From an uncultured Gemmatimonadota bacterium (GTDB taxonomy: Bacteria > GCA-2686955), in the NCBI GenBank assembly GCA_964490075.1, contig CAZBBK010000013.1:1-64000 (forward strand): a stretch of DNA of 64,000 nucleotides, written 5' to 3'. Position numbers and translations under genes: made by a program. The notes below the pieces were generated by a model. It was not told the origin of the DNA. It was given only the letters and a program-made list of their open reading frames with translations, and searched no databases. Positions 7,889 to 39,569 of the stretch are shown here, in pieces (position 1 is the first letter of the stretch; every line of letters starts with the position of its first letter).

Positions 7889-11361
<3,473 letters not shown>

Positions 11362-11473
11362 GGAAAGCGGCCCCGTCCCGGCCGGCGCGGGGCTATCCTG
11401 AAACGAGGTCGCATGCTGACCCGACCGGGGCCGACCCGCTCGCGCTTCGGCGCAGACACGAGAGGAGAACCCG

Positions 11474-13462
11474 ATGTGGCGGAGAAGCGGACTCGGAATC
11501 GTCGCCCTGCTGCTTGCGGTGAGCGCCCCTGGCGCCACCCTTCGTGTACCCGCCGATCATCCCTCCATCCAGGGGGCGATCGATGCGGCGCTGGACGGAG
11601 ATCTGGTGCTGATCTCTCCCGGCACCTACACCGAGTGGGAGATCGACTTCCTCGGCAAGGCGATCACCGTGAGCGGCACCGACCCGAGCGATCCGGCGGT
11701 GGTCGATTCGACGGTGGTGGATGGATCGGAAAACGGCTCGGTGTTCGTGCTGCGCTCGGGTGAGGGGCGCGGGACTCGATTGGCGGGGGTTACCGTGATG
11801 CGAGGCAAGGCCGACTTGGGAAGCGGGATCTCTTGCATCGATGTGTCGCCGACCATTATCGCTTGCGCGATTCGCAACAACGACAGCTGGGGTGCTCTGG
11901 CGCCAATGGGACGATGCGGGGGTGGCGTATATTGCGAGCGCGGGGCGCCGCTCTTCATCGACTGCCGAATCCTGGAAAACTGGACCAGGACCGGCAACGA
12001 CATCTCCAATACCTCAGACGCTCACGGTGGAGGGGTATGCATACGAGACGGAACACCGGTCTTCGTCGGTTGTGAGATCCGTGACAATCACGCTGGCGGC
12101 TTCACTTACCAGCCTGCCCGCGCCGCGGGCGGCGGGGTCTTCTTGGGTGCGGCCGCGGACGCGGTGTTCCTCGACTGTGCCATCGTCGACAATGATGCCG
12201 ATGCAGACTACACCTTCGGGGGCGTGGGGCGCGGGGGCGGCATCTTCGGTTTGAGGAGCTCGCTCGACTTGATTCGGTGCGAGATCTCCGGCAACAGCAT
12301 CGGGAGACGCGGACTCATCGGGGGAGTTGAGTTTTACGGGAAAAGACTTCGACTGATCGGCTGCAACATCTCCGACAATGCCTGCAGCGGAATCGTCGCA
12401 AGGACAAGTACATTGGAAGTGGAGGATACCGTTGTGCGTGGGCATTCGGGCCCGGGATCCGACGACGATCTCGGGGGGGGAATCGACTGGGACGGTGACC
12501 AGGCACGCATTGCCAATAGCGACATCCTCAACAACACAACTCAAAGCTGCGGAGGCGGGCTTCGCCTGCGCGGACCAGCGCTGGTCGACTCATGCACGGT
12601 GAGGGGGAATGTAGGCAACGAATTCGGCGGTGGATTGTGTGTCGAGGGCGTGGTCACGATCCGCTCTTCCTTGATCGACAGCAACCGGGTCGGAGTCTGG
12701 CCGGCGCCTTCCGGCGGTGCGATCTATGTCGCCGCAGGAGGATCGATCGGACTGGAAGACTGCACCCTGAGCTTCAACTGGTCGCCCTACAAGGGGGGCG
12801 GGGTGTACACAGAGGGAATCGGGGCGACCTTGGTCGATTGCCGGCTACGCGGCAACGGCGCTGGACATGGCGGCGCGGCATACCTGGCCGAGGGATCACT
12901 GCTGATGTCCAACTGCGAGACCCGGGCCAACACGTCCGCATCTGGAGGCAGCGTCATTCACGCAGCCGCGGGAACGCTGACCACCGAAGCCACGCTCATC
13001 ACGGAGAACATGGCCCATGGATGGGGACTTGATGGCGCCGCGATCGAGGTCGGTGGATGCCTGGCAACACTCCGCAACTGCACCATCACCACCAACACCG
13101 CCGAAGACGCAATGATCCTGGTCCAGGATAAAGGCGCCGCCACGATAACCAACTGCATCATCTGGAACAACGACGCCCCCGAGACGATCCGCGCCGACTC
13201 CGCCGCGGTGCAGATCCGTTACAGCACCGTCAACGGCGGCTGGCCGGGTATCGGCAACATCGACGCCGACCCGCTATTCCGCGCTCTCGGCCCCTACAAC
13301 TACTTGCTGCGCGCGGGATCTCCCGCCATCGATGCCGGCGATCCGGAGCTCTCTGACGCGATCTTCGACTGGCATCCACGCTGGCCGGCATGGCAGCCTG
13401 ATGGCGAGCGCTCCGACATGGGGGCCTACGGCGGACCGGCAAATCGTGGTTGGTTGCCGTAG
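11474..13462 (+). CDS. Secreted right-handed parallel beta-helix protein
   Basis: Signal peptide, LRVPADHPSIQGAID, GGG(V/I) repeats, C-terminal DWHPRWP..PDGERSDMGAYGGPANRGW. Confidence 0.9.
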   Translation: MWRRSGLGIVALLLAVSAPGATLRVPADHPSIQGAIDAALDGDLVLISPGTYTEWEIDFLGKAITVSGTDPSDPAVVDSTVVDGSENGSVFVLRSGEGRGTRLAGVTVMRGKADLGSGISCIDVSPTIIACAIRNNDSWGALAPMGRCGGGVYCERGAPLFIDCRILENWTRTGNDISNTSDAHGGGVCIRDGTPVFVGCEIRDNHAGGFTYQPARAAGGGVFLGAAADAVFLDCAIVDNDADADYTFGGVGRGGGIFGLRSSLDLIRCEISGNSIGRRGLIGGVEFYGKRLRLIGCNISDNACSGIVARTSTLEVEDTVVRGHSGPGSDDDLGGGIDWDGDQARIANSDILNNTTQSCGGGLRLRGPALVDSCTVRGNVGNEFGGGLCVEGVVTIRSSLIDSNRVGVWPAPSGGAIYVAAGGSIGLEDCTLSFNWSPYKGGGVYTEGIGATLVDCRLRGNGAGHGGAAYLAEGSLLMSNCETRANTSASGGSVIHAAAGTLTTEATLITENMAHGWGLDGAAIEVGGCLATLRNCTITTNTAEDAMILVQDKGAATITNCIIWNNDAPETIRADSAAVQIRYSTVNGGWPGIGNIDADPLFRALGPYNYLLRAGSPAIDAGDPELSDAIFDWHPRWPAWQPDGERSDMGAYGGPANRGWLP

Positions 13463-23177: not shown

Positions 23178-23297
23178 TCTCGGCTCCGGGCTCCGGGTCT
23201 GGCGGGACGGTCGAATTGACCCGCTTATGATGCGAAGACTACGCTTACTATCTTATGTAGTCGTCCCGCGCCCGTGGCTTTTTTTCAGGATTCGCCC

Positions 23298-25022
23298 ATG
23301 CAACGTGTTCCATTGCTCCTCCTTGTCGGCTCGATCGTGGCTCTCGCGGCTCCCGCCCAGGCCGCCGAACGCAGCGTCATGGCCGAGCTCATGACCGCCA
23401 CCTGGTGCACCTACTGCCCCTGGGCCGAGTCGGCGCTCCACCAGCTCGAGGACGAGTACGATCGCGACCGCTTCGTGGTGATCGGCTACCACGTCACCGA
23501 CGAGTACTCCAACGTCGAGGGCGACGCCCGGATCGGCTACTACCAGATCACCGGCACCCCCACCACGGCGTTCGACGGCACGAGTCTGATCGTGGGGGGC
23601 TGGGACGGCGTCTACACCTCCTACAAGAACCGGATCGACTCCGATATGACGCAGGAGGCGCAGCTCGAGATGTCGATCACCGGCACCGCGACCGGCAGCC
23701 AGGTCGACTACGCGGTCCACGTCAGCGTCGGCGCCCCGCCGATCTTCACCGAGCCCAAGCTCTACGTGGCGCTCGGCGAGCGCGGGCTGATCGACGACAA
23801 CGAGGAGATGCGGCCGGTGGTGCGGCGCATCGTCTCGCACGAGCTCGGTGGACTGGTTGCGGCCGGAGACGAGGTGGTCGCCACCGGATCGTTCCCGATC
23901 GAAGAGGAATGGGACGGGTCGGCGATGGAGATCGTGGCCTTCGTGCAGGATCTCGGCGATCGCAAGGTCGATCAGTCGACCCGCATGTTCTTCACCGCCT
24001 TCGACTCTCCGACCGACCTGGTCACCGCGACCGAGGATTCGATGCGGGTGATCTCGACGCATCTCAGCAATCCCAACTCCTACCCGATCGACATGCGCAT
24101 GCAGATGGGCGACCTGTCGGAAGACGACTGGATGGCGACCTTCTGCATCCTCGAATGGGGGATCTGTCTTCCCGACTCGCTCGATCTCACGCTGCCCGCC
24201 GACTCCACGGTCACTGTCAAGCTGCAGTGGATCGACATGGGGGCGACCGAGAAGACTCTCACTTCGAACTTCATGATGCGTTACGGCGAGAACTACGACA
24301 TCGTCAAGAGCGTGCCCTACACCGCGCGCTCCGGCCAGGTGACGCTGGAGGTCGCCGAGCTCTTGATCGACGACGACAACGAAGGGGGCAGCTCCGGCAA
24401 CGGCGACGGCGTGCCGCAGCCGGGCGAGGCGATCGAGTTCATTACCCGCGCCCACAACACCGGCGGATTGCTCGCCTATGGCGTCAACTCGGAGCTCACC
24501 ACCTCCGACGCCGGGGTGTTCGTTTTCGAGCCGGAGGAGAGCTACGGAGACATCGACGCCGGCGCCACCGCCGACGGCTCCGGCGGCCGCTTCGTGCTCG
24601 ACGAAGACGTGGTCCCCGAAACTGTGCTGACCTTCGTCCAGACCTTCACCGACGCCGAGCAGAACGTCTTGAGCGACACCATTTACGTGGAGGTCGGCGC
24701 GGTCGGCGTGGCCGGCGACGGTCCCGGGCTGCCCGGACCGAGCAGAACGGCGCTGCACCAGAATCAGCCCAATCCCTTCAATCCGCGCACCAATATCGGC
24801 TTCGACCTGCAGCAAAGCAGCGATCGGGTCGATCTGAGCGTGTACGACCTGAGCGGACGGGAAGTGCGGCGGTTGATCGACGGGCCGCGGCCGGCCGGTC
24901 GCCATTCGGTGGTCTGGGACGGCACCGACTCCCAGCACCGACCACTCCCCAGCGGTGTCTACCTCTATCGCTTGACGACCGGCGACCAGAGCCTGACCCG
25001 CCGGATGCTGCTCATCAAGTAG
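23298..25022 (+). CDS. Omp28-like thioredoxin-fold secreted protein with FlgD-Ig/T9SS-like C-terminal domain
   Basis: Signal peptide, ELMTATWCTYCP, IGYH, GTPTTAFDG, IVAFVQD; QNQPNPFNPRT...SGVYLYRL...RRMLLIK. Confidence 0.88.
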   Translation: MQRVPLLLLVGSIVALAAPAQAAERSVMAELMTATWCTYCPWAESALHQLEDEYDRDRFVVIGYHVTDEYSNVEGDARIGYYQITGTPTTAFDGTSLIVGGWDGVYTSYKNRIDSDMTQEAQLEMSITGTATGSQVDYAVHVSVGAPPIFTEPKLYVALGERGLIDDNEEMRPVVRRIVSHELGGLVAAGDEVVATGSFPIEEEWDGSAMEIVAFVQDLGDRKVDQSTRMFFTAFDSPTDLVTATEDSMRVISTHLSNPNSYPIDMRMQMGDLSEDDWMATFCILEWGICLPDSLDLTLPADSTVTVKLQWIDMGATEKTLTSNFMMRYGENYDIVKSVPYTARSGQVTLEVAELLIDDDNEGGSSGNGDGVPQPGEAIEFITRAHNTGGLLAYGVNSELTTSDAGVFVFEPEESYGDIDAGATADGSGGRFVLDEDVVPETVLTFVQTFTDAEQNVLSDTIYVEVGAVGVAGDGPGLPGPSRTALHQNQPNPFNPRTNIGFDLQQSSDRVDLSVYDLSGREVRRLIDGPRPAGRHSVVWDGTDSQHRPLPSGVYLYRLTTGDQSLTRRMLLIK

Positions 25023-25086
25023 CGCGCAACTTCCGATGCCCCTTGCTCCAGGGCCGGAGCGGGGGCATCTCGCCAAGGAGCCGCCG

Positions 25087-25590
25087 ATGCGATTGATCTC
25101 CGCCCTCGCCCTCAGCCTGACGCTCGCGAGCTTCTGCGCGCCGCCCAGCCACGCCGCCGACAAGATCCCCAACTTCAACCTCGAGAAGATGGATGGGGGG
25201 CGCAGCAAGCTCGCCGACTTCCTCGGCGAAGGCCCGGTGCTGCTGAACTTCTGGGCCACCTGGTGCAAGCCCTGCAAGCAGGAGGCTCCGCACCTGATCG
25301 AGCTCTACGAGGAGTACCGCGAGCGCGGCCTGCAGGTGGTGGCGATCGCCGTCGACGACGTGAGCTCGCAGGCCAAGGTGAAGCCGGCCGCGCGCAAGAT
25401 GGGGCTCACCTATCCCGTGCTGCTCGATCCGAAGGGGCGCTACGCCCAGCGCCTGCAGGCGGCGGCGCTGCCGACCAACGTGCTGCTCGACCGAGACGGC
25501 AACGCGGTGCGCACCTTCACCGGCTACCGCAAAGGCGACGAGCGGGAGATCGCGGCCGAGATCACGAAGCTGCTCACCGCCCAACAGTAG
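25087..25590 (+). CDS. TlpA-family thiol:disulfide oxidoreductase
   Basis: LLNFWATWCKPC; AAGGAG RBS; signal peptide. Confidence 0.92.
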   Translation: MRLISALALSLTLASFCAPPSHAADKIPNFNLEKMDGGRSKLADFLGEGPVLLNFWATWCKPCKQEAPHLIELYEEYRERGLQVVAIAVDDVSSQAKVKPAARKMGLTYPVLLDPKGRYAQRLQAAALPTNVLLDRDGNAVRTFTGYRKGDEREIAAEITKLLTAQQ

Positions 25591-25601
25591 ACGAAGCGCA
25601 C

Positions 25602-27263
25602 ATGAAGATGATCAGGGGTTCCCGCGGCGCGATCGCCACCCTTCTCTGCGCGGGCTTTTCCTGCGCCCGGGCATTCCAGATCTCCGGGATATCGATCAGC
25701 GGTGAGGAGGCGCTGCTGGTGCAGCGCGGCGACGAGACCGTGTTCGACGGCGGCGCGCCCGCCGACCAGAGCAAAGAGGTCCTGGAGAACCGACTCACCG
25801 TGGAGCTGCGCTGGCTGGATTGGACGCTCGGGGGGCGCTTCGATCATCTCGATCCCTCCTTCTTCGGTGCCGGCTACACCGGTCTGCGCAAGCGCTATCT
25901 CGAGTTCGAAGACGGCACCAACCACCTGCGCATCGGCTCTTTCGACACCCTGCTCGGTCAAGGGCTGGCCCTGAACCTGTACGAAGATCCGCTGATCAAC
26001 GTCGACCGGCAGCTCGATGGCTTCCTTCTGGAACGGCGGACGGCGAGCTACAGCGTGCACCTCCTGGGTGGGCTCGGCAGCTTTCTGGCATTCGAGTTCC
26101 CGGAGGAGCACCGGGAGGACCGCGTGGCGGCCGGCTACGGAACCTACCGCTGGCTGGATCGGATCGAGCTCGGCCAGGGCTACGTGGAAACTCGCGACGG
26201 AGTGCCGGGCGACAGCCGCCACATCAACCGCAAGCATCTCGCGACGCTGCGTCTCGATCTCGAACAGGGATCGTTCTACGGCGAGCTGGCGCACAACTGG
26301 GTCAGAGTCCCCGGAGAAGATCCGGCCGAGGAGGCGCCGGGGCGCGGTGGTTACGCCAAGCTCTCCGGCTGGTTCGGCGATTTTTCGCTGACCGGGGAGT
26401 ACAAGAACTACGCCCTCGACGAGCAGGCCTCGTCCAGCGCCTATTCGGGGGTCGGAATCCCCTGGTCGGAACCGCCCTCGCTGCGCCCCTTGGCCAGCCT
26501 GACTACATTGAACCGCAAGCAGTTCCTGGTGGACAAGAACAACGAGGTCGGCTTCGCCGTCGAGGGCGACTACAGTGCCCCCTTCGGTGGGACTTTTTCG
26601 CTCTTCTACCTGAACACGGCCGAGCGCTCCTACTTCGACCCCACTCCGGGGGGCGAGGAGGTGGTGGCGGCGTGGCCGAAGTGGGTCCGATTCGACGGGA
26701 TCTCCGGAAGCCTCACCAGCAACTTCGAGGAGCTGACCTTCGGCGCCGACCTGCCGATCCGGGAGGGCCTCGGCACCTACTGGGTGGCCGATCTGTCGAT
26801 CGACGGCCATATCGGCGCCCCCAAGAAGCAGCGCACCCTGGGCGTCACCACCGAGGCCGAGATCGGCGACGTCCACGGCCTGACCGTCTCGCTCGAGTAC
26901 CAGCACACCGAGGATCGGCGCTTCGAAGAGATCTACGCCGCGGACTTTCCCGAGCTCAGGCCGCCCCGATTCCACGACGGCGTCGCCACCATCACCTACT
27001 CGCGCTCCCCCTGGTTCTCGGTCTTCGTCAACCACGAACGAACCAACGAGGCGAAGCACTGGGAGGCGGTGGGTTATAAAGGAGCAGAGGAGCCCCTGGA
27101 GGATTCCTACTGGATCGCCGGCCTGGATCTCGACATCACCCACAGCACGCGCCTCGGCCTGCAGGCCGGAAGCGAACGCGGCGGCGTGGTTTGCCGGGGC
27201 GGCACCTGCAAGTTCATTCAGCCTTTCAGAGGCTGGAGGATGGACCTGGTCCACCGCTTTTAG
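25602..27263 (+). CDS. Outer-membrane beta-barrel protein, DUF6029-like
   Basis: GSFDTLLGQGLAL, EYKNY, C-terminal GSERGGVVCRGGTCKFIQPFRG...RF. Confidence 0.78.
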   Translation: MKMIRGSRGAIATLLCAGFSCARAFQISGISISGEEALLVQRGDETVFDGGAPADQSKEVLENRLTVELRWLDWTLGGRFDHLDPSFFGAGYTGLRKRYLEFEDGTNHLRIGSFDTLLGQGLALNLYEDPLINVDRQLDGFLLERRTASYSVHLLGGLGSFLAFEFPEEHREDRVAAGYGTYRWLDRIELGQGYVETRDGVPGDSRHINRKHLATLRLDLEQGSFYGELAHNWVRVPGEDPAEEAPGRGGYAKLSGWFGDFSLTGEYKNYALDEQASSSAYSGVGIPWSEPPSLRPLASLTTLNRKQFLVDKNNEVGFAVEGDYSAPFGGTFSLFYLNTAERSYFDPTPGGEEVVAAWPKWVRFDGISGSLTSNFEELTFGADLPIREGLGTYWVADLSIDGHIGAPKKQRTLGVTTEAEIGDVHGLTVSLEYQHTEDRRFEEIYAADFPELRPPRFHDGVATITYSRSPWFSVFVNHERTNEAKHWEAVGYKGAEEPLEDSYWIAGLDLDITHSTRLGLQAGSERGGVVCRGGTCKFIQPFRGWRMDLVHRF

Positions 27264-27283
27264 AAGATCTTGGAGACCCACGA

Positions 27284-28321
27284 ATGATCAAGCATGTCTA
27301 CCTGGCTCTGGCCGCGACGGCGAGCATCGCACTGAGCGCCCAGGCCGCCAACGACATTATTCCCCGCTGCGTGGCGATGGAGCTGTTCACGGCTTCCTGG
27401 TGCGGCTACTGCCCCAACGCCGACGCCGGAGCCGAGCAGCTTCGCGAGGAGGAGGGCCGTGCCGGCACGGTCTTCATCGAGTACCACGTCAGCGACGGAT
27501 TGTCGTCGCCGGACGGCAACGCTCGCCAGAGCTACTACGGCGTCACCGGCACCCCGACCATGATCTTCGATGGCATCACCAAGGTGATCGGAGCCGGCGG
27601 TCCGATGTACAACACCTACCGGCAGCGCTTCGACGGCCGTCGCAACTACGATCCGATGGTCGACATCCGCATGACCGGCGACATGACCGGCAACAACACC
27701 TGGAACGTACAGGGTTCCGTCGAGGTCACCCAGCGCATCTGGCAGCAAGGCACGCCCGAGCTGCGCGTTGCCCTGACCGAGAACGACCTGTGGACCGGCG
27801 GCCGGCACTACAACGGTGTGCTGCGCGATCATGTCGCCAACATCGATTTGAACGGCAAGAGCGTCGGTGACGTCACCTACTTCAGCGAGTCGATTCCGAT
27901 CGACGGCTCGTGGAAGAAGGACGATTTGAACATCGTGGTCTACGTGCAGGAGCCGCAGTACCAGGAGATCATCGGCGCCAAGCGGCTCTCCGAAGTGTCG
28001 ATGGACGTGGTCGGCGACAGCTTTACGGTGGCGCGCGGCGACCACCTGATCGTTCCGATCGATCTCGAGAACATCAGCCGCTCGACGCAGAATCTGACCA
28101 TCTGGATGATCGCCTACCGGATGAACGGATCCCAGGTCGGTCCCAATCCGATCTACCTCGACACTTATTCGATCACGTCGGGAGACGCCGACACCTACAC
28201 CCTCGACTACCGAATCCCCGGCGCCGCACCGCTCGGCGACTACCAGGTCGCGGCCTGGATCGGCACCGGCTTGGACGACACCCTGGAGTGGGACAAGTAC
28301 CAGGTGACGATTCAGCCATAG
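27284..28321 (+). CDS. Omp28-like thioredoxin-fold secreted protein
   Basis: ELFTASWCGYCP, IEYH, YYGVTGTPTMIFDG, IVVYVQ. Confidence 0.88.
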   Translation: MIKHVYLALAATASIALSAQAANDIIPRCVAMELFTASWCGYCPNADAGAEQLREEEGRAGTVFIEYHVSDGLSSPDGNARQSYYGVTGTPTMIFDGITKVIGAGGPMYNTYRQRFDGRRNYDPMVDIRMTGDMTGNNTWNVQGSVEVTQRIWQQGTPELRVALTENDLWTGGRHYNGVLRDHVANIDLNGKSVGDVTYFSESIPIDGSWKKDDLNIVVYVQEPQYQEIIGAKRLSEVSMDVVGDSFTVARGDHLIVPIDLENISRSTQNLTIWMIAYRMNGSQVGPNPIYLDTYSITSGDADTYTLDYRIPGAAPLGDYQVAAWIGTGLDDTLEWDKYQVTIQP

Positions 28322-28341
28322 CGCCTCTTTCCCTCGCGCCG

Positions 28342-28384
28342 GCGCCTCCCGTACCCTCGTCGGTGCGGGGGGCGCTCTGTTTTG
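28342..28384 (+). terminator. Probable rho-independent terminator
   Basis: GCGCCTCCCGTACC/GGTGCGGGGGGCGC stem followed by TCTGTTTTG. Confidence 0.55.
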
Positions 28385-28398
28385 CTCCGTAGCCTTCC

Positions 28399-31300
28399 GT
28401 GCGCAAGAGCAGGCCCGAATTGCCAGACCAGACACCGACGACCGACAAGAGCGCCGGCGAGAACCCGGCGCCCCCAGGCGTCGACGAGTCGGCCCGGGAG
28501 CCGATTCGCGCCGCGCTGCGCGCGGAGCAGGGAACCCGGGCGTTGGAGCTGCTCGAGGCGATCGATCCGGCGACGCGGGCCGCCGATGGCGAGCTGCTGG
28601 TGCTGGAGGCGCGGGCGCGGGTCGAGTTGGGGAGCGCGGACGAGGCGGTGGCGCTTTATCGCAAGGCGGCGGGGCTGCGGCCGGACGACGCCGGCCTCGC
28701 GCTGGAGCTGGCCCGTCTGCACCTGGTGCTGGAAAAGCGCAAGGCGGCCCTGGGCTGGGCGAGGCGCGCGCGCGACCTCGCCCCCGAAGCGGTCTCGGTG
28801 TCGCTCGCGACCCTGGAGATCTTCGAGCTGCTCGGCGCCCGTTCCGAGGCGCGGGCCGAGGCCGCGCGGGCTCTCGGCAACCACAAGGGCGACGCCAACC
28901 TGCAGGCGCGCCTCGGCATGCTGGCCCAGGTTCACGGCGACCTCGATCTGGCCACCAACGCCCTGGCGCTGGCGGCCGTCGACCGCAACCCCGCGGCCGA
29001 CGCCTTTCTGCCGCTCGGCCTGATCTTCTGGGATCACCTGCGCCGCGCCGAGTTCGCGCGCTCGGTCCATCTGACCAAGCTCTTGCGGCACGGCTCCGAT
29101 CCGCAGAATCTGCGCGAGCTGGGATGGATCGAGCTGCTGGCGGGTGACCGGGCGACCGGGTCGGCGCTGCTGCTGGGCGGACTCGACGCCTTCGAGCAGC
29201 AGCCCGCGGCGCTGATCGTGGAGCAATGGGCGGCGGAAGCCGACAGCCGGCCGATCGACGAGCTGCTCGCCTCGATAGAGCCTCCGCCTCCCGGCATCAT
29301 CCACCGCGGAGCGGCGCTCTTCTTCGCCAACCGCGGCAACCCCGGCCTGGCGGAGCGCTGGCTGCGCGAGGCCGCCACGGTCTTCCCCGACCAGCCGCCG
29401 ATTCGCTACGAGCTGGCGCAGCTCCTCTTCGAGCAGCTCGGCGCGGAGGACGAGGCGATCGAGCAGCTCGACGCGATCGACGCCGAGGGCGACGCCGATC
29501 TGGCCTCCGCGGTCGAGGCGCTGCGCAAGCGCGTGCTCTCCGGCGACAGCGAGGCCGTGGCCGACACCCTGGCGAGCCCGGCGAGTGAGGGGGAGCTGGG
29601 AGTGCTCGGGGTTCACGCCCATGCCCTGGCGGGAGATCCCGCGCGCGGGCTGCACTGGCGTGGCCCCGACGACCTGGTGCTGCGGGTGATGCGGATCCTG
29701 TCGCGTCCGACCCACCGCTCGGTGCTGCTGGCCGGCGAGCCGGGGGTCGGCAAGACCGCCCTTATCATCGAGGTGGCGCGGCGGCTGGCCGACGGCGAGT
29801 GCCCCGAGTCGCTGCGCGGCAACCGGGTCCTGGAGCTTTCGCCGACCGCGTTGCAGACCGACATCAAGTACCTGGGCGAGTGGCAGACCAAGATCACCCG
29901 CCTGGTCGAGGAGGTGCGCCGGGCGCCCGGCACCATCCTCTACATCCCCCGCTTCCATCACCTTCTCGGGGCGGGAGCGACGCGCGCCCACGAGGAGGAC
30001 ATGGCCGGGGCGCTGGCGCCGCTCCTGGCCACCGACCAGCTCACGGTGGTCGCCGGCGGCAACCCCGAGCCGCTCCGGCGTATGCTGCGCAGCCGTCCGG
30101 AGCTCGATCGGGCGTTGACCATGGTCGACGTGCCGGAGCCGACGCGCGGACAGGTGCGGGCGATTCTGCTGGCGGCACGGGGGTGGATCCGCGGCAACGA
30201 AGGGCCGCGCATCGAGTCGGCGGCGGTCGATCGCGCCATCGATCTGTGCGCGACCTTCCTGCGCCACGAACGTTTTCCGGCCAAGGGGATCGACCTGCTG
30301 CGGGCCGCCTACGAGTCGGTGCGTGAGCGGCAGGGCAGCCTGTTGACTCCCGAGGACGTGGCGCGCGAGCTGAGCGCCAAGACCGGCCTGCCGAACTTCC
30401 TGGTGCTCGATTCCGAGATCCTCGACCTGGACCAGACCCGGGCCTTCTTCCGGGAGCGGATTCTGGGACAAGACGAGGCGCTCAGGACCATGCAGGACAC
30501 TGTGGCCCGGATCAAGGCGGGGCTGCAGGATCCGCAGCGGCCGCTGGCTACCTACCTCTTCACCGGACCGACCGGCGTCGGCAAGACCGAGACCGCCAAG
30601 GTCCTCGCGGCCTACCTCTTCGGTGACGAGAAGCGGATTCTGCGCTTCGACATGAGCGAATACTCCGATCCTCTGGCCGTCGATCGCCTGATCGAGTCGC
30701 GCGAGGGGGCGAGCGGCGCGCGCGGGCACCTCACCGGAGCGGTCCGCGAGCACCCGCTCTCGGTCATTTTGCTCGACGAGATCGAGAAGGCTCATCCGCG
30801 GGTCTTCGACCTGCTGCTCCAGGTGCTCGGCGAGGGCCGGCTGACCGACGCCCGCGGCGAGACGGTCGGCTTCCACGAGAGCGTGATCATCATGACCTCG
30901 AACCTGGGCTCCGACCGGGGCGCCGACGGCGGTCTGGGGTTCACGCGCGACCGGGCCGCCGCCGAGGCCGCGGCGATTCGCGAAGAGGTGCAGCGCTTCT
31001 TCCGGCCCGAGTTCATGAACCGGATCGACGACGTGGTGGCCTTCCGCCGCCTCTCGCAGGACGACCTGCGCACGGTCGCGCTGCGCGAGATCGGTCGCTG
31101 CGTGGCGCGCGAGGGGGTGGTGCGCCGGGCGCTGGTGGTCGAGACCGACCCCAGCGTGGCCGACCTGGTGCTCGATCGAGGCCAGAGCGGCCGCTACGGG
31201 GCGCGCGAGCTCAAGCGGGCCGTCGAGCAGCTGGTGGCGGTCCCGCTGGCGCGGCTGCTCTCCGGAAGGGCGATTCCGCCGGACAACACGGTGCGCCTGG

Positions 31301-32433
31301 TGACCCGGGAGGGCTCGGTGGTCGCCGAGATCGTGCCCGACATCGGCGCCGCGCCCAGCCTGGCCGCCAAGGTCGCGGCGCCTGGAGAGCAGCGCTCGTT
31401 GGAGCTGGTCCGGGCCGGAATCGACGACACCACCACGCGCATCGGCCGGCTCGCGGCGACCCTCGGCGTGCCCTCGGCCCAGCGCCGCGCCGAGGAGCTG
31501 CGACGCGAGATGGAGCGCCCTGGCTTCTGGGACGATGCCCGCTCGTCGACCACGACTCTGCGCGCCCTGGCGGAGCAGAATCGGCTGCTGGATCGCGACA
31601 AGGCGATCCGCGTCGAGCTGGAAGAGGTGGGGATGTTGGCCGACCTGGTCGCCGAGGGGCACCGTGAGCTGCTGCCGGAAGCCGGCCAAAAGCTGCGCGA
31701 GATCGAGCTGAAGGTCGAGCAGATGGAGTTGGAGACCCTGCTCTCGGCCCCGGGCGACGCGCGCAGCGCCTACCTGGTCATCACCGCGGGCGACCAGACC
31801 CCCGATGATGTAGCCTGGGTGCGCGAGCTTGCCCGACTCTACGAGCGCTGGGGGACCCGCCGCGGCATGCAGGTGGAGATCGTCGGCGAGCGCAATTTTC
31901 GCGGTTCGACGCGGGGGAGCGCGGTGCTCCAGATCGACGGCGCATTCGCCTTTGGGCTGCTGAGGAGCGAGACCGGAACCCACCGCCGGGTCCAGACGCG
32001 GCCCGACGGTGAGCGCAAGGTGGTGGTGGCCCGGATACAGGTGGTGCCCGAAGCGCAGGACGACCCGCCGCGGCCGCGCGATCTGGCCTTCCGCGCCAGT
32101 CGCTCGTCGAAGACCAAGTTCCTGGCCGCGCCGCGCGGCGTGGTGTCGTTTCGGGCGGCGGATCGCCGCTGGTCGCTGCGCACGCCGCTCGACAGCAGTG
32201 CCGCGGAGCAGTTCGCGTCCAGCTTCGTCGCCGGGCTCTCCGAGTCGCCGGTTCATGACGACGAGCTGGCGACCATCGCCCGCAATCTGTTGCTACAGAA
32301 GCGCCCGAGCGTGCAAGACCCGCGCACCGGACACGAGTCGACCGATGTGCGCGCGGTGCTCGACGGCGAGATCGACGACTTCATCCTCGCCGCGCTCGCG
32401 GCCGAACCTCCCGCGTCGAACCCTGCGTCATGA
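28399..32433 (+). CDS. TPR - ClpA/B-like double AAA+ - release-factor-2-like fusion protein
   Basis: TPR-like N-third; GEPGVGKT and GPTGVGKT, RFDMSEY, LLDEIEKAH, FRPEFMNRID, GARELKR; RF2-like PGFWDD, AFGLLRSETGTHR, DPRTGHES..VLDGEIDDFI. Confidence 0.9.
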   Translation: MRKSRPELPDQTPTTDKSAGENPAPPGVDESAREPIRAALRAEQGTRALELLEAIDPATRAADGELLVLEARARVELGSADEAVALYRKAAGLRPDDAGLALELARLHLVLEKRKAALGWARRARDLAPEAVSVSLATLEIFELLGARSEARAEAARALGNHKGDANLQARLGMLAQVHGDLDLATNALALAAVDRNPAADAFLPLGLIFWDHLRRAEFARSVHLTKLLRHGSDPQNLRELGWIELLAGDRATGSALLLGGLDAFEQQPAALIVEQWAAEADSRPIDELLASIEPPPPGIIHRGAALFFANRGNPGLAERWLREAATVFPDQPPIRYELAQLLFEQLGAEDEAIEQLDAIDAEGDADLASAVEALRKRVLSGDSEAVADTLASPASEGELGVLGVHAHALAGDPARGLHWRGPDDLVLRVMRILSRPTHRSVLLAGEPGVGKTALIIEVARRLADGECPESLRGNRVLELSPTALQTDIKYLGEWQTKITRLVEEVRRAPGTILYIPRFHHLLGAGATRAHEEDMAGALAPLLATDQLTVVAGGNPEPLRRMLRSRPELDRALTMVDVPEPTRGQVRAILLAARGWIRGNEGPRIESAAVDRAIDLCATFLRHERFPAKGIDLLRAAYESVRERQGSLLTPEDVARELSAKTGLPNFLVLDSEILDLDQTRAFFRERILGQDEALRTMQDTVARIKAGLQDPQRPLATYLFTGPTGVGKTETAKVLAAYLFGDEKRILRFDMSEYSDPLAVDRLIESREGASGARGHLTGAVREHPLSVILLDEIEKAHPRVFDLLLQVLGEGRLTDARGETVGFHESVIIMTSNLGSDRGADGGLGFTRDRAAAEAAAIREEVQRFFRPEFMNRIDDVVAFRRLSQDDLRTVALREIGRCVAREGVVRRALVVETDPSVADLVLDRGQSGRYGARELKRAVEQLVAVPLARLLSGRAIPPDNTVRLVTREGSVVAEIVPDIGAAPSLAAKVAAPGEQRSLELVRAGIDDTTTRIGRLAATLGVPSAQRRAEELRREMERPGFWDDARSSTTTLRALAEQNRLLDRDKAIRVELEEVGMLADLVAEGHRELLPEAGQKLREIELKVEQMELETLLSAPGDARSAYLVITAGDQTPDDVAWVRELARLYERWGTRRGMQVEIVGERNFRGSTRGSAVLQIDGAFAFGLLRSETGTHRRVQTRPDGERKVVVARIQVVPEAQDDPPRPRDLAFRASRSSKTKFLAAPRGVVSFRAADRRWSLRTPLDSSAAEQFASSFVAGLSESPVHDDELATIARNLLLQKRPSVQDPRTGHESTDVRAVLDGEIDDFILAALAAEPPASNPAS

Positions 32434-34235
32434 AGCCTCGCACCCGCCCCTTGCCCGCCCGGCCCAGGGCACCTCTCGCTCTGGCCGCCGCGGCGCTCGT
32501 CTGCGGCGGCTGCGGAGGGCCCCAGCCAGAGGATCGGCAGGCGCAGGTGCTGCGCTTCATGGCCAAGGACTTCCTGGCGACCCCGGCCGACGAGCGCGAC
32601 CCGCAGCGCACCGGCAACCTCTTCATCTACGTCGCCGACCGCGGCTCCGGCCCCGCGATCTACTCGGTGGAAGATGGCTCGGAGCGTCCGGAGCAGCTTT
32701 CTCAAGCCGGAATCCGCGCCGCGTCGCCGCAGGTGTCACCGGACGGCCAGCAGGTGCTCTTCGTCGCCGCCGAGAGCGATGACCGCGGTGAAGGGGCTCG
32801 GGACTGCCGCGACACCCGCCGCTTGCGCCTCGCTTCGGCGCCCCCACCCGAATCGGTGGCCACCCGTATCTGGATCGTGCCCGCGACCGGCGGCGATCCC
32901 AACCCGCTGACGGCCGAGGGAGAGCAGGCCATCGATCCGATGTGGCTGCCTGGTGGCGACAGTTTTCTATACGCGTGCCGGAGCTCCGAAAGCGAAGGCT
33001 TCGACATCGTGCGCGCCGACCTGGTGGCCGGCCGGCCGGTGCCGCTCTACGGCGGCCCAGGCGATCAGCTCCAGCCCGCGCTGCGTCCCGGCAGCGACCA
33101 TCTGCTCTTTCGCAGCGTCGTGGGCGGCACAGGAATGCTGATGCTGGGCGATCTGAAGGGCGGTGCGCCGGCGCCGGTGGCCGAGGACGTGAACGATCCG
33201 AGCCACCCCGCCTGGTCCCCGGGCGGGCGCTGGGTGGCGCTCGACGCGGCGTCGCCGCGTGGGCGCGTGGTGCGGATTCTGGAGGCCCGGGGAGCTCGTC
33301 TGCGCGCCATGGAGGGCGACCCGCCGCTGGGGCGTGCGCCCATCTGGTTGAACGAGCGGGCCCTGCTGGTCACGCAATACCGCCCCGCGGCGCTGGAGTG
33401 GATCTGGCTGAACCAGGACGATCGACCGCCGCACGCGGTTCTGGCGGATCCGGTCTACGATCTGGGGCAGCCCTCGATTTCGCCGCAGCGCACCCTGGTG
33501 CTCTACCGCTGCAACGGCGATCTGGAGGTGGCCGACATCCGTCCCGAAAGGCCGGAGCGCCGCCGGGTCACCGACGACCTCTGGGAGGACTCCCACCCAG
33601 CCTGGTCGCCGGACGGTCTGTCGTTTGTATTCGAATCGCGGCGTGAAGGCAACAGCGACATCTTTTTGCGCACCTTTCCGGCACTGCGCGAGCGCCGGCT
33701 GACCAGCGATCCGGCCGACGACCGCACGCCACGCTTCACGCCCGATGGGCGCGCGGTGCTCTTCGCGTCGAATCGCGACGGCACCACCGCTCTCTACCGC
33801 ATCGACCTCGAGGATCACGAGAGCAGGCCGGTCCAGCTCGAGGCGGGGCGCGGCGGGCGGCCGCTGCACCCCGACCTGTCGCCGGTCGGCGAGTGGATCG
33901 TCTACAGCGTCGAATGGGGCGAGGGCCGGCGCGTCGAGGTCTTCAACCTCGAGACCGGGGAGCAGCGGCCGCTCACCGAAGGCTCCGACCCCTGGGTGGC
34001 CGACATCGAGCCGGCGTTCTCCCCCGACGGCGTCTACGTCTCCTTCCACCGCAACGCGCTGGCGGAGTCCGATATCTACATCGTGCCGTCCAAGCGAAAG
34101 GGCGCGCGCCTGATCGAGTCCCGAGTCTCCAAGGCCCGGCGCAGCCCCGACTGGATGATCGACGGCCAGTCGCTCATCTACTCCACCGGCGGCTCTTTCG
34201 ATATCGCCTTGATCGAGCTCGGTGGACTCTGGTGA
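32430..34235 (+). CDS. TolB-like PD40 beta-propeller protein, probable lipoprotein
   Basis: Repeated P.(W/F)SPDG motifs; hydrophobic N-terminus with lipobox-like LVCGGC. Confidence 0.88.
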   Translation: MKPRTRPLPARPRAPLALAAAALVCGGCGGPQPEDRQAQVLRFMAKDFLATPADERDPQRTGNLFIYVADRGSGPAIYSVEDGSERPEQLSQAGIRAASPQVSPDGQQVLFVAAESDDRGEGARDCRDTRRLRLASAPPPESVATRIWIVPATGGDPNPLTAEGEQAIDPMWLPGGDSFLYACRSSESEGFDIVRADLVAGRPVPLYGGPGDQLQPALRPGSDHLLFRSVVGGTGMLMLGDLKGGAPAPVAEDVNDPSHPAWSPGGRWVALDAASPRGRVVRILEARGARLRAMEGDPPLGRAPIWLNERALLVTQYRPAALEWIWLNQDDRPPHAVLADPVYDLGQPSISPQRTLVLYRCNGDLEVADIRPERPERRRVTDDLWEDSHPAWSPDGLSFVFESRREGNSDIFLRTFPALRERRLTSDPADDRTPRFTPDGRAVLFASNRDGTTALYRIDLEDHESRPVQLEAGRGGRPLHPDLSPVGEWIVYSVEWGEGRRVEVFNLETGEQRPLTEGSDPWVADIEPAFSPDGVYVSFHRNALAESDIYIVPSKRKGARLIESRVSKARRSPDWMIDGQSLIYSTGGSFDIALIELGGLW

Positions 34236-34245
34236 AAGTGTCTTG

Positions 34246-34917
34246 ATGGCGACCAACAATCTCAGAGAGCAGCTTCTGAAAGCCGGTCTGGTGACCGAGG
34301 ATCAGGTGCAGCAGGCGGAGCGCGACGCGCAGCCCAAGGCGAAACCTCGGGGCAAGTCCCCGCGGGGCGAACGCGGCGCCCAGCCGAAGAACGGCCGTGG
34401 CGAGGATCCCGGAAAGCGAGATCCGGCCAAGAAGAGGAGGAAGAAGAAGAGTCGACGCGGCGAGGACCAATCGCCGCCGCCCGATCCGCGGGCCCTGCTG
34501 CTCGAGCTCTTCCGGTTGGAGCTGGTGGCGATCCGCGAGGGCACGGCGACGCTCAACTACACGGTGGACGGCGACGGCCGAGTGCGCCGCGTGACGCTCG
34601 ATGTCGAGCAGCACCGTACGCTGATCGAGGGCGAGGCCGCCCTGGTGGCGATCGATGCCGAGGTGCGCGGCCTCCTGGCGCTGGAGAACAGCCCGCGCAC
34701 CTTCGGCCGCCGGTCGCGGCGGGTCTACTCGGGAGGGCCGGCCACGTCGACCCAGGCGCCGGAGCAGGCGGAGCTCGGTCTGCTGCCGCGGACGGCGGCG
34801 GAGCGGCTGCTCGAGATCGACCGCGCGCGGATCCTCTTCTTCAACCGCGAGCGGCGGGCGTCCGAGACGCAGAGCGACGCCGCGGAGGGGGACGGCGCCG
34901 AGGAACGCGCCGGCTGA
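34246..34917 (+). CDS. Hypothetical protein, DUF2058-like
   Basis: NLREQLLKAGLV N-terminus, basic low-complexity linker. Confidence 0.6.
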   Translation: MATNNLREQLLKAGLVTEDQVQQAERDAQPKAKPRGKSPRGERGAQPKNGRGEDPGKRDPAKKRRKKKSRRGEDQSPPPDPRALLLELFRLELVAIREGTATLNYTVDGDGRVRRVTLDVEQHRTLIEGEAALVAIDAEVRGLLALENSPRTFGRRSRRVYSGGPATSTQAPEQAELGLLPRTAAERLLEIDRARILFFNRERRASETQSDAAEGDGAEERAG

Positions 34918-34936
34918 ACGGCGCCGCCCGCGGCCG

Positions 34937-35791
34937 ATGTCCACCACATCTCCTTCGCTCGCTACCCGCCTGGTGCTGCTCGGCACCGGCACGCCGAATG
35001 CCGAGGCCGACCGCTCGGGACCCGCGTCGGCGATCGTGTCGGGCGGGCGCGCCTACCTGGTCGACTTCGGACCCGGCGTAGTGCGACGGGCGCGGGCCGC
35101 GCAGCGCCTCGGCATCGACGAGCTCGCTCCGCCGCGCATCGACCACGCCTTCGTCACCCACCTGCACTCCGATCACACGGCCGGCTACCCGGACCTGATC
35201 CTCACGCCCTGGGTGCTGGGGCGGCGCGAGCCGTTGCAGGTCTACGGTCCTCCCGGCATCCGCGCCATGACAGATCATCTGCTCGCCGCCTTCGCCGAGG
35301 ACATCCGGGTGCGGACCGAAGGGGACGAGCACGCCAACCGTGGGGGGTGCCGGGTCGACGCGCACGAGATCGAGCCCGGCGTGGTGCTCGACGACGGCTG
35401 CGTCAAGGTCACCGCCTTCGCGGTCGAGCACGGCTCCTGGCCGCACGCCTTCGGCTACCGATTCGACGCACCCGATCGCAGCATCGTCGTCTCGGGAGAC
35501 ACCACCCCTTGCGAGAACCTGGTGCGTCATGCGCAGGGCTGCGACCTGCTGGTGCACGAGGTCTACAGCGCCGCGGCACACGCCGAGCAGCCGGCTTCGT
35601 GGCGGCGCTACCACGAGCGCTCCCACACCTCCACGCAGGAGCTCGGCCGGCTCGCCGACCGGGTGCGCCCGGGGCGGCTGATTCTCTATCATCAACTCGG
35701 CTGGGGACGCAGCCCACGGGAGCTGGCCGACGAAGTCGCGGCACATTTCGACGGTGAGATCGTGTTTGGGCGCGATCTTGGTGTCTTCTAG
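34937..35791 (+). CDS. MBL-fold metallohydrolase, RNase Z/AtsA-like
   Basis: LLGTGTP, THLHSDH, SGDT, LLVHE, SHTS. Confidence 0.9.
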   Translation: MSTTSPSLATRLVLLGTGTPNAEADRSGPASAIVSGGRAYLVDFGPGVVRRARAAQRLGIDELAPPRIDHAFVTHLHSDHTAGYPDLILTPWVLGRREPLQVYGPPGIRAMTDHLLAAFAEDIRVRTEGDEHANRGGCRVDAHEIEPGVVLDDGCVKVTAFAVEHGSWPHAFGYRFDAPDRSIVVSGDTTPCENLVRHAQGCDLLVHEVYSAAAHAEQPASWRRYHERSHTSTQELGRLADRVRPGRLILYHQLGWGRSPRELADEVAAHFDGEIVFGRDLGVF

Positions 35792-35801
35792 CTCTTCTCC
35801 G

Positions 35802-36611
35802 ATGATCGACTGCCACGCCCACCTGAGCGACGCCGCCTTCGAGGAGGATCTGGACACCGTCCTGGAGCAGGCCCGCTCGGCCGGGGTGCGGCACGTGATC
35901 TGCGTCTCGGAAGGGCCTGGGGACGCCGCGGAAGTGCTGGCGCTGGCGGAGAGCTACCCGATGCTCCACGCTTGCCTCGGCCTGCATCCCGACCGCGCCG
36001 ATCCGGCCGCCGCCCGGCGGGTCGCCGACCTGGTGCGGCGCCACGCCGCGGACCTGGTCGGCATCGGCGAGGTGGGGCTCGACTACTGGGTGGCCAAGGA
36101 GGAGGCCGAGCGCGAGCGCCAGCGGCGGGTGCTCGAGAGCTTCGTCCAATTGTCGCTGGAAACCGATCTGCCGCTGAACGTGCACTCGCGCTCGGCCGGC
36201 CGCCACGTGATCGCCCTGCTGCGCGAGTTGGGCGCCGAGCGAGTGTTGCTGCACGCCTTCGACGGCAAGGCCCGCTACGCCCTCGAGGCGGTGGAGCTGG
36301 GCTACTTCCTCTCCATCCCGCCCTCGATTCTACGCTCGCCCCAGAAGCAAAAACTGGTGCGACGGCTGCCCCTCGACGCACTCTTGCTGGAATCCGATTC
36401 CCCGGTCCTCGGCCCCGAGCCGGGGCGGCGCAACGAGCCCGGCAACGTGGCTCTGGCGGCGCAGGCGATTGCCGAGATCCAGGGTTGCCCCCTGGAGCGG
36501 GTGGTCGAGGTGACGAGGGCCAATGCTCGGCGGCTTTTTGGGATCGATGGTTCGTGTGCGGGGGGCGGGGGGCGCGACGCTCACGGAACCCCCAACACGC
36601 CCGAGACGTAG
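35802..36611 (+). CDS. tatD: TatD-family hydrolase
   Basis: IDCHAH, GLHP, IGEVGLDY, VHSR, LLESDSP. Confidence 0.92.
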   Translation: MIDCHAHLSDAAFEEDLDTVLEQARSAGVRHVICVSEGPGDAAEVLALAESYPMLHACLGLHPDRADPAAARRVADLVRRHAADLVGIGEVGLDYWVAKEEAERERQRRVLESFVQLSLETDLPLNVHSRSAGRHVIALLRELGAERVLLHAFDGKARYALEAVELGYFLSIPPSILRSPQKQKLVRRLPLDALLLESDSPVLGPEPGRRNEPGNVALAAQAIAEIQGCPLERVVEVTRANARRLFGIDGSCAGGGGRDAHGTPNTPET

Positions 36612-38183
36612 CCCCAGCGTGACCGGCAAGCTCGTTGGCTCGATGAGCGCGGTGCTGCTGATCTGCCTCGCCACCTTCGCGCTCTTGATGAGGCAGTCGG
36701 AAGGCCGGGTGAAGAAGGAGCTCGCCGATACGGTTTCGACGGTCGGTCGGGCCACGCTCGGAGCGATCCAGCGCGAGGCGGCGCTGCGGGGCTCCGGCCA
36801 GCCGCGAGCCCCCGCTGAGGGCACGAGCCAGCGCCCGCGGCGCGAGATCCTCGAGCTGCGCGAGCGCTCGGCGGGCGACGCCGTCCATGCCGAGCTGTTG
36901 GTGATTCGCGAGAGCGAGGAGGGCACCGAGGTGGTGCGCCGCAGCCTGCAGGGCCAGGCGGCCCTCGACTCGGTTCGCGACTTGACGATCGTCCGGCGCC
37001 GCGCCGCCGCCTCGATCGCGGCCGCCGGAGAGCCCTCCGCGCTGTCGATCTTCGTGCATCGCATCGTCACCGAGACCGACTCCGGATCCGGGGCGCTGGT
37101 GATGAAGATCCCGGCGCTCGAGGCCGCGGCCGCGGCGGCGGCCGATTCCGCGCCTTCGCCCGCGGCGGCCGGGCTGGAAGAGATCAGCGTCGCCGTCTCG
37201 ACCGCCGACTACGACGCCCTTTTCGCGGCGATGCGCCGGCGCGTGGCGCTGGTCTTCTGCGCCGTGCTGGCCGCCGGGATCGCCCTCTCGGTGTGGCTCG
37301 CGCGCCGCATCACCCGCCCGATCCGCGCCATGGACCGGGCCCTCGACGCGCTCGGTCGCGGCGACCTGGACGCCCGGGTGGCGGCGCGGGGCAACGACGA
37401 GCTGGCGCGTCTGGGGACCGCCTTCAACCGGATGGCCGACTCGCTGCGCAGCTCGCGTGAGCGCGAGCGGCGCCTGGTGCGGCGCGAAAAGCTCACCGCC
37501 CTGGGGCGCCTGGCTGCCGGGGTGGCGCACGACGTTCGCAACCCGATCCACTCGGTCGGTTTGACCCTGCAGCACGTCGAGGATTCCTGCCGTCCCGCCG
37601 ATCCAGCTCCGGCCGCCGAGCTCGATCGCTCGCTGGCCCTGATCCGTGACGAGCTGCGCCGTGTCGATCGCCTGGTCGGGTCGTTCCTGCGCTTTGCCCA
37701 GAACGAGCCGCTGGAGCGCGAGTCGGTCGCGCTCGACGCGCTGGTCCACGATGTCGTCGCATTGATCGAAGCGCGCGCGCGCCGGGCATCGATCGCCGTC
37801 GTCGTCGACGCCGAGGCGGGTCCGGCGCGAGAGATCTCGGTCGACGCCGAGGCGATCCGCACCTCGATCCTCAATCTGGCCCTGAACGCCATCGACGCCA
37901 TGCCCCAAGGCGGCGAGCTGCGCTTCGAGCTGAGCCGCTCGGACGCGGAAGCGACACTGGTGGTGGCCGACAGCGGACGCGGCATCGCGCCCGAGCATCT
38001 GCAACATATTTTCGACTTCGGCTGGACGTCGCGCGACGAGGGTCACGGGCTGGGCCTGGCCGTGGTGCACCAGATCGTCGTCGAGCGCCACGGCGGGCGC
38101 GTCGACGTCCGGAGCGACCTCGGCGCCGGCAGCCGCTTCACTCTCGCCCTTCCCTTCTCCGCGCCGCAGCCGGAGGCGGCATC

Positions 38184-38187
<4 letters not shown>
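36547..38187 (+). CDS. HAMP-domain sensor histidine kinase (start uncertain)
   Basis: Two TM segments, HAMP, AHDVRNP H-box, NLALNAIDA, DSGRG, GHGLGL. Confidence 0.9.

Positions 38188-39569
<1,382 letters not shown>

Follow-up and report, generated by a model that had tools for sequence, protein, structure and literature searches.

We analysed a window of 64,000 nucleotides from an uncultured Gemmatimonadota bacterium (positions 1 to 64,000 of the forward strand of contig CAZBBK010000013.1, GenBank assembly GCA_964490075.1), in which the + strand carries at 28399..32433 a single open reading frame with a GTG start (P0001, 1344 amino acids). The encoded protein comprises a tetratricopeptide repeat (TPR) region, two AAA+ modules (D1 and D2), a D2-small domain, a linker and a C-terminal module resembling peptide chain release factor 2 (RF2). 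A first-pass annotation made from the letters alone had described it as a TPR-ClpA/B unfoldase fused to a catalytically dead RF2 homolog, acting either in ribosome quality control or as a conflict/defence sensor, and had proposed structure prediction, a survey of homologs for loss of GGQ and a search for a separate intact prfB as checks. The fusion itself stood: the gene forms one open reading frame and all the quoted peptides lie at the positions reported. Its codon-position GC (0.76/0.49/0.90) resembles that of the neighbouring + strand genes and follows the coding pattern of the genome, and a long antisense open reading frame at 28312-32256 has the mirror pattern.

The TPR repeat region (28510..29538, approximately residues 38-380) takes the place of Clp_N. 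Pfam families TPR_19, TPR_14, TPR_16, TPR_11, TPR_8 and TPR_Slam matched within the first ~380 residues, and Clp_N was found neither among the best 25 of the 46 Pfam families matched nor in residues 1-420 scanned at E<=10. The AAA+ D1 (29662..30348; Pfam AAA at residues 442-566) has a Walker A motif GEPGVGKT at 29734-29757, a pore loop KYLGEW at 29866-29883 and, at the Walker B position (29938-29955), LYIPRF with no DE. The AAA+ D2 (30538..31032; Pfam AAA_2 at residues 714-878, E 6e-47) has a Walker A motif at 30565-30588, a pore-loop region (30685-30741) that reads RLIESREGASGARGHLTGA and has no GYVG, a Walker B motif ILLDEIEK at 30766-30789, sensor 1 at 30895-30903, an LGF loop at 30934-30945 (LGF being residues 846-848) and an Arg-finger motif PEFMNR at 31006-31023. 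A ClpB_D2-small domain (31051..31296, residues 885-966, Pfam E 2.1e-8) is followed by an Ala/Pro-rich linker without any family match (31297..31410, residues 967-1004) and by the RF2-like module (31411..32403), whose domains 1-4 are collinear with RF2 and which carries GFWDD at 31522-31536, ETGTHR at 31969-31986 and the VLDG tail motif at 32356-32367. All these features lie on the + strand. The RF2-like peptides are EMERPGFWDD (residues 1037-1046), AWVRELARLYERW (1139-1151), AFGLLRSETGTHR (1185-1197) and DPRTGHESTDVRAVLDGEIDDFI (1307-1329). Among the best 25 of 60 NCBIfam models, no curated model reached its cut-off and none fitted the architecture: the protein scored 397.9 bits for ClpB (cut-off 1232), 359.3 for ClpA (993.15), 142.4 for prfB TIGR00020 (370), and 49 and 41 bits for the two prfA models.

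A phmmer search with residues 1000-1344 against PDB chains matched 42 distinct chains, of which the best was E. coli RF2 (E 3.2e-28, spanning RF2 8-245 plus 331-363), and the best RF1 match had an E-value of 1.1e-10. With the Pfam PCRF match at residues 1028-1203 (E 1.7e-22), this bears out the claim that the C-terminus follows RF2 collinearly, and the resemblance is well beyond chance. Scanned alone, the last 345 residues matched PCRF only among Pfam families, and the last 140 residues gave no Pfam match at E<=10, leaving the RF-1/GGQ domain unrecognisable.

Using the RF2-like region as a query in a word-index search among proteins of similar length, we retrieved four relatives, namely three TPR forms that are 47-77% identical in that region and one HEAT form of 1111 amino acids. 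The window's own genome (G000) encodes a paralog (contig C39:16276-20346 on the - strand, equivalent to L008:8277-12347) of 1357 amino acids with the same TPR-AAA-AAA-RF2-like layout, which is 46% identical to the window protein across nearly its full length (tblastn) and has entirely different neighbours. The GTDB phylum of the window was represented by five species genomes, four from the window's family and one from another. The fusion was present in all four genomes of the family-level lineage, three of which hold a second copy, partly as fragments, and the one genome from outside that family had a 361-aa prfB only. Searching 1.84 billion representatives exhaustively by HMMER with a profile of the RF2-like region yielded 9646 matches at E<=1e-3, 248 of them at E<=1e-30; at least 43 full-length clusters at 50% identity have the fusion architecture, with TPR, HEAT or no repeats at the N-terminus. 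When eight diverse long members were scanned with Pfam, AAA, AAA_2 and PCRF were found in all eight and D2-small in seven, the N-terminus being TPR in two, HEAT in two and without a match in four; the RF-1 domain was detected at E<=1e-5 in none of these eight.

To separate the family from true RF2, 162 proteins (the query, the first relatives, the listed matches and eight cluster members) were scored with a family HMM and a true-RF2 HMM. This set apart 81 family-like proteins, and the two scores always differed by at least 30 bits; the test is circular for the 43 family and 51 RF2 rows used in training, and the 31 shorter family-like proteins were not training rows. These 31 are below 900 amino acids, and most of the 30 inspected resemble gene fragments that start inside D2 motifs or lack a Met. 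Three of them (P0013, P0049 and P0126) match the module roughly in length, have FW[DNE] near the N-terminus and may be either stand-alone dead RF2s or truncated calls; further short matches (P0034, P0060, P0102, P0114, P0133 and P0153) could likewise be stand-alone proteins or truncated calls. In a quick maximum-likelihood tree of 96 rows, which is unrooted and places its single RF1 outgroup inside RF2 on a long branch, the 43 family domains fell on one side of a branch with SH-aLRT support of 100.

The Planctomycetota sample covered 401 genomes, from which seven long-frame matches were opened, with 333 matches of the search left unlisted. Six of the seven proved to be true fusions of 1124-1226 amino acids, with two Walker A motifs and the xGF loop, and their RF2-like parts contain neither SPF nor GGQ (a GGQ that L211_07 has by chance lies further upstream). 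The seventh, L217, was rejected as an ordinary prfB with SPF and GGQ in a spurious long frame, and open-frame length is therefore unsafe as a marker of the fusion. A scan of genome contigs based on PGFWDD kept 80 loci, two of which are family members, the motif being common to true prfB. A scan of viral contigs with the D1 alignment and a Walker A pattern also kept 80 loci, with 27-36% identity over D1, and we provisionally take these for ordinary Clp-type D1 modules. The ESM Atlas provided leads only (scores <=0.87), in AAA ATPase clusters from Myxococcota and Planctomycetota.

The unusual architecture is the one feature that might suggest an assembly chimera or a decaying pseudogene. The junction between the D2-small and RF2-like parts is, however, bridged without differences by a contig of 6670 nucleotides (run X1, perhaps the source sample), and identical short contigs from other samples of the study span 31267-31417 (X4) and 31392-31539 (X3). 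The frame is intact, with a coding GC3, the same fusion occurs in other metagenome-assembled genomes, in the paralog and in Planctomycetota, and its motifs are strongly conserved. An assembly chimera, which the first-pass annotation had named among the findings that would undo its proposal, is effectively refuted, as is a gene in decay. We conclude that the fusion represents a real, conserved and widespread bacterial family that is apparently undescribed. Its members carry automatic names only in the source databases ("ClpA/protein subunit release factor A", "AAA family ATPase [Planctomycetota bacterium]"). In keeping with the statement that no member had been characterised, a full-text literature search found no account of Clp or AAA+ fused to RF2, within a literature where the supplementary lists of one survey (PMC6514570) could bear on the matter. 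In the accessible text of that survey of release-factor evolution, "Clp" occurs 0 times and AAA+ is mentioned only for Cdc48 with Vms1 (PMC6514570), and the accessible part of a 2021 review of bacterial ribosome rescue treats Clp only as the protease for tagged chains (PMC8012679).

We compared the RF2-like module with the true prfB of the same genome, in which SPF and GGQ are present, by aligning six members (the window protein and five relatives). The SPF recognition loop carries a deletion of 2-4 residues and has no SPF in 6/6; the window protein lacks 3 residues and reads TRP at this position, within the equivalent segment HRRVQTRPDG (31984-32013, residues 1196-1205). A 9-residue deletion removes the GGQ loop in all six, the equivalent segment of the window protein being RASRSSKTK (32092-32118, residues 1232-1240), and a 5-residue deletion removes the WGNQI segment of the switch loop, again in all six. 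None of the 43 full-length members has SPF in its RF2-like region, a chance SPF in P0096 being located in the N-terminal part. Motif conservation was then compared between these 43 members and 51 true RF2s. The family keeps P.FWDD in domain 1, MY..W, G..AYGLL..E.G.HR, RV.VLP and the C-terminal VRD.RTG...VL.G.ID.F, and is without conservation at the helix-5 tip (AGaGGTeaqDW), AGiKS, LVRiSPF and rR.TSFA, as well as at RssGaGGQhVNkt.sAVR.tH.PTG, cQ.eRSQ.qN and wG.qi. The lost motifs are those assigned, from RF2 structures, to stop-codon reading, the switch loop and catalysis. The net charge of the RF2-like domains has a median of -1 (range -17 to +16), against -16 in true RF2, so that these domains are the less acidic.

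The RF2-like module was modelled with AlphaFold2 from a family alignment of 28 rows (mean pLDDT 93.4, pTM 0.85), and the top Foldseek matches of the model were all RF2. The best superpositions were with compact, pre-accommodated ribosome-bound RF2 (5mdw_7, TM 0.68, rmsd 5.5 A; 6ost_7, 0.68, 5.7 A; 5mdy_7, 0.62, 5.9 A), and rmsd values of 13-15 A were obtained against accommodated, open RF2. The module is thus predicted to form a complete RF2 body in a closed, compact shape, which fits the shortened switch region. Judging from its motifs and deletions, the RF2 part is dead for both decoding and catalysis and retains its fold. The proposed catalytic death was in this way confirmed and extended, since the GGQ loop is deleted in the aligned members, its motif is unconserved across the 43 and the RF-1 domain is no longer recognised; the survey of homologs that had been suggested agrees with it, the suggested structure prediction supports the RF2 fold, and the genome does hold a separate prfB (498 bits) with SPF and GGQ.

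In the ATPase region, residues 400-985 align to ClpA 195-726 in one stretch; the alignments to ClpB and ClpC each fall into two stretches and pass over the M-domain. The best PDB match was ClpB (1qvr, E 1.3e-99), in which the alignment is broken between approximately residues 403 and 480 of 1qvr, indicating that there is no M-domain; at the D1 Walker B the alignment with T. thermophilus ClpB places ILYIPRFHHLLGAG opposite ILFIDELHTVVGAG. ATPase motifs were surveyed in the 43 full-length representatives aligned with the ClpC (contig C7) and ClpB (contig C51) of the window's own genome. In D1, Walker A is largely kept and an aromatic residue occupies the Tyr position of the pore loop in ~38/43 (usual form [KR][YFW]xGxW), and the DE of Walker B is found in 0/43, the window protein having IPRF and other members PN, PD, RD, ED, TD, DA or DQ. 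The DQ and DA of P0069 and P0040 are natural variants resembling an "E-to-Q/A trap", and the window's clade has no acidic residue there. In D2, Walker A is present in 43/43, Walker B in 42/43, and sensor 1, the Arg finger and sensor 2 are likewise kept; the GYVG pore loop is found in none of the 43, its place being taken by unconserved loops of variable length. A GF dipeptide, mostly as [LVI]GF, occurs in 42/43 at the position of the FGF loop of the genome's own ClpC, and its own ClpB has no such loop. The same genome has three ClpP-like genes (282.7, 214 and 101 bits), each under the 308.6-bit cut-off.

On these patterns the family consists of ClpC/ClpA-derived double-ring AAA+ proteins with no Clp_N, no M-domain and a variable N-terminus. 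D1 looks like a ring that binds nucleotide without hydrolysing it, D2 looks like an active ATPase deprived of the usual polypeptide paddle, and selection acts on the ClpP-docking type of loop. Canonical threading is doubtful because the D1 Walker B DE and the aromatic D2 GYVG are lost in 43/43. Of the initial label "ClpA/B unfoldase", the Clp-derived double AAA+ architecture holds, and the extraction and unfolding activity as originally worded is unsupported in view of the same losses.

The arrangement of the two halves also bears on an explanation that needs no external ligand, in which the RF2-like module regulates or assembles the protein from within, gating the D2/ClpP face or mediating a resting oligomer in the manner of the ClpC M-domain. 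A flexible linker of ~38 residues tethers the module to D2-small, on the outer edge of the D2 ring and close to the xGF loops; a rigid, compact body is predicted for the module, and the M-domain and Clp_N that regulate related proteins are both missing from the family. Retaining 345 residues of conserved four-domain RF2 would nevertheless be a costly way to build such a regulator, and we regard this explanation as improbable.

Upstream of the fusion, the + strand carries three genes of exported or outer-membrane type (23274-28321) in the order T9SS-tail/Omp28-like, DUF6029 and Omp28-like: the first has FlgD_ig, Omp28 and Por_Secre_tail domains (the last serving type IX secretion sorting), the third is Omp28/DUF1223-like, and these two Omp28-like proteins, which share 30-34% identity, are paralogs. 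Downstream follow, on the same strand, a PD40 protein, a DUF2058 protein, a metallo-beta-lactamase-fold protein, TatD, a histidine kinase and a sigma-54 response regulator, the last two being a HAMP/HisKA histidine kinase and an overlapping sigma-54-dependent regulator located ~4 kb downstream of the fusion (36523-39569, +). In 2-kb windows, GC is 0.70-0.72 across 28000-38000 and 0.65-0.67 in the preceding 10 kb. Gene order around the fusion is kept in close relatives. The PD40 gene (Pfam PD40; 32430..34235, +) overlaps the fusion stop by 4 nt (ATGA) and encodes a beta-propeller protein with a lipoprotein-like N-terminus that is probably exported. It is kept only in the close relatives L009 and L010, with no tblastn match in the more distant L092; it is lineage-specific and probably no partner of the fusion. 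The DUF2058 gene (34222..34917, +; Pfam E 2.8e-12) is a conserved downstream neighbour in the window's lineage only: in L092 its homolog starts ~50 nt past the end of the fusion match, and it is absent beside the paralog and in the Planctomycetota loci. Across eight loci (the window, the paralog and six from Planctomycetota), no neighbour family occurs in more than two, and no clpP, translation or defence gene is linked to the fusion. One Planctomycetota locus (L215, G117:C2, with the fusion at 8526-11975 of the locus) has a true prfB on the same contig ~12 kb downstream (G117:C2:37168-38211) and an open reading frame of 1748 amino acids directly before the fusion.

These surroundings are relevant to the suggestion that the protein is a conflict or defence sensor-effector monitoring translation. 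Its layout of TPR or HEAT repeats with an NTPase recalls sensor NTPases, Pfam returned weak nSTAND3 and NACHT P-loop matches, and PADLOC-DB 2.0 gave partial AAA matches (PDC-M37B at 2e-26 and DolB at 5e-21, residues 676-844 only). The PADLOC matches are generic and confined to the D2 ATPase core, however, and there is no effector domain; both downstream neighbours (PD40 and DUF2058) had 0 PADLOC matches. The eight loci share no conserved neighbourhood and show no defence-island or mobile context, the 80 loci of the viral contig scan are only 27-36% identical, over D1, and the gene is held vertically in 4/4 genomes of the lineage, with a paralog in three. A defence function therefore fared poorly, and we consider it very unlikely.

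The genome's own set for termination and rescue comprises a true prfB, prfA, a transfer-messenger RNA (tmRNA; tag ADNQLAMAA), an ArfB-like gene and an NFACT_N (RqcH-like) gene. The true prfB (contig C7:99478-100503, - strand, L001) scores 498 bits with the prfB model; its frame is without a start of its own, the ATG upstream is out of frame with it and the match to the HMM starts at position 11 of the model, which looks like the usual programmed +1 frameshift. The genome's ClpC gene lies ~5 kb from it (contig C7, 91661-94219).

Considering both halves of the protein, we tentatively favour a reading to which we give somewhat less than an even chance, namely that an RF2 mimic with no need of a stop codon brings an atypical AAA+ remodeller, linked to ClpP, onto ribosomes. 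The RF2-derived module would act as a stop-codon-blind mimic of shape and bring the hexamer to the ribosomal A site and factor-binding region. D1 would bind ATP without hydrolysis, serving assembly and forming a substrate-holding ring through the conserved KYxGEW pore loop, and D2 would be the sole motor, more likely performing remodelling or extraction than processive threading because it has no aromatic pore loop. The conserved xGF loop suggests that material may be handed off to ClpP. Overall, the protein would use ATP to remodel or clear ribosomal complexes that are stalled, damaged or idle, with no peptidyl-tRNA hydrolysis of its own. Docking is ranked first because four collinear RF2 domains are kept over deep divergence and the whole shape is known to matter only at the A site: the four-domain layout including domain 1 is retained in the 43 deeply diverged clusters, which we count in its favour, we know of no role of RF2 domain 1 other than on the ribosome, and to our knowledge the ribosomal A site is the only setting in which the whole RF2 shape matters. 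We also count in favour of this reading the closeness of the model to compact ribosome-bound RF2, the D2 Walker motifs and xGF loop kept across the family, the ClpP homologs of the genome and the lower acidity of the RF2-like domains. A more elaborate version, drawn by analogy and in our judgement rather unlikely, would make the family a counterpart, built from bacterial parts, of Pelota-ABCE1 and Vms1-Cdc48, in which the RF2 mimic sets a ClpP-linked ring on stalled, damaged or hibernating ribosomes, ATP is used to strip or split them and protein is passed to ClpP. If true, a new pathway of ribosome quality control would operate in Planctomycetota, in the window's lineage and in further phyla.

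Several observations weigh against ribosome docking. The RF2 elements that touch the decoding centre, the switch region and the peptidyl-transferase centre are all deleted or unconserved (the helix-5 GGxE tip, SPF, the His/Thr after SPF, the switch-loop Trp and GGQ), and affinity for the ribosome may have gone with these contacting loops. Neither a translation gene nor clpP is a conserved neighbour in the eight loci. Classical unfolding into ClpP is disfavoured by the loss of the D1 Walker B and the D2 pore loop in 43/43, and with tmRNA, ArfB-like and RqcH-like genes in the genome there is no rescue gap to fill. There is also a precedent for work off the ribosome, since the accessible text on plant PrfB3, an RF2 without SPF and GGQ, describes it as an RNA-stabilising protein (PMC5897788).

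The main rival builds on that precedent. The RF2 fold would have been exapted off the ribosome as a domain binding substrates, RNA or adaptors, as in PrfB3, and the whole protein would serve clients unrelated to translation, either as a dedicated ClpC-like partner of ClpP or as a remodeller working alone. The loss of all ribosome-functional loops, the PrfB3 case itself (PMC5897788, as far as its accessible text goes), the variable neighbours that are not translation-related, the variable TPR and HEAT N-termini typical of client or adaptor binding, and a net charge less acidic than that of RF2 are all consistent with it. Under exaptation, domain loss and reshuffling would be expected, and yet the four RF2 domains, including the PxFWDD domain 1, remain collinear in 43 clusters. 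We hold exaptation to be possible, if doubtful.

Whichever of the two applies, a conserved fusion of two of the best-studied bacterial protein types was found that so far bears automatic names only. Its motifs suggest an ATPase that has been systematically rewired, with a dead D1, no D2 pore loop and a retained ClpP loop, and a release factor that has systematically lost both decoding and catalysis. Should the RF2 module still reach the ribosome, the family would represent a new route of ATP-driven ribosome surveillance in bacteria and show, as an experiment of nature, what the RF2 shape does alone. If its site of action is not ribosomal, it would be a second independent case of a release factor recruited elsewhere, after plant PrfB3, and a new mode of Clp targeting. 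Either way it offers a concrete, testable protein with members in Planctomycetota, a phylum with cultured strains.

Among known systems, RF2 (prfB) is homologous to the fusion over domains 1-4, with PxFWDD, E.G.HR and the C-terminal VLDG.ID.F in common, whereas the fusion lacks SPF, GGQ, the helix-5 GGxE tip and the switch-loop Trp, sits behind an AAA+ ATPase and coexists with a separate true prfB. With ClpC/ClpA it has in common two AAA+ modules and D2-small, the absence of a ClpB-type M-domain and an xGF loop at the FGF position of the genome's own ClpC; it differs by having no Clp_N, D1 Walker B DE or D2 GYVG, by scores far under the cut-offs and by the additional C-terminal RF2-like module. 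For D2, ClpB/Hsp104 scores best in both NCBIfam and PDB, but the fusion has no M-domain, possesses the xGF loop, is predicted to be hydrolysis-dead in D1 and has lost the D2 pore loop. Plant plastid PrfB3 is likewise an RF2 homolog minus SPF and GGQ, and hence unable to terminate (PMC5897788), the likeness lying in the shared losses alone; the accessible text presents it as a protein that binds RNA in the chloroplast, where it stabilises petB transcripts, and mentions no ATPase fusion (PMC5897788). Pelota/Dom34-ABCE1 and Vms1-Cdc48 would follow a similar logic, pairing a release-factor-shaped protein with an ATPase on stalled ribosomes. According to the accessible part of the survey cited above, Dom34 is without the catalytic glutamine, and Vms1, the release-factor peptidyl hydrolase of the eukaryotic ribosome-associated quality control (RQC) system, binds the AAA+ Cdc48 (PMC6514570). 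Unlike the fusion, Pelota/Dom34 and Vms1 have the unrelated eRF1 fold and act as separate polypeptides, so the parallel is one of analogy and not of membership. The family is best described as a variant of the Clp/Hsp100 proteins that bears a dead RF2, with ribosome docking as the leading, still unproven hypothesis for its function.

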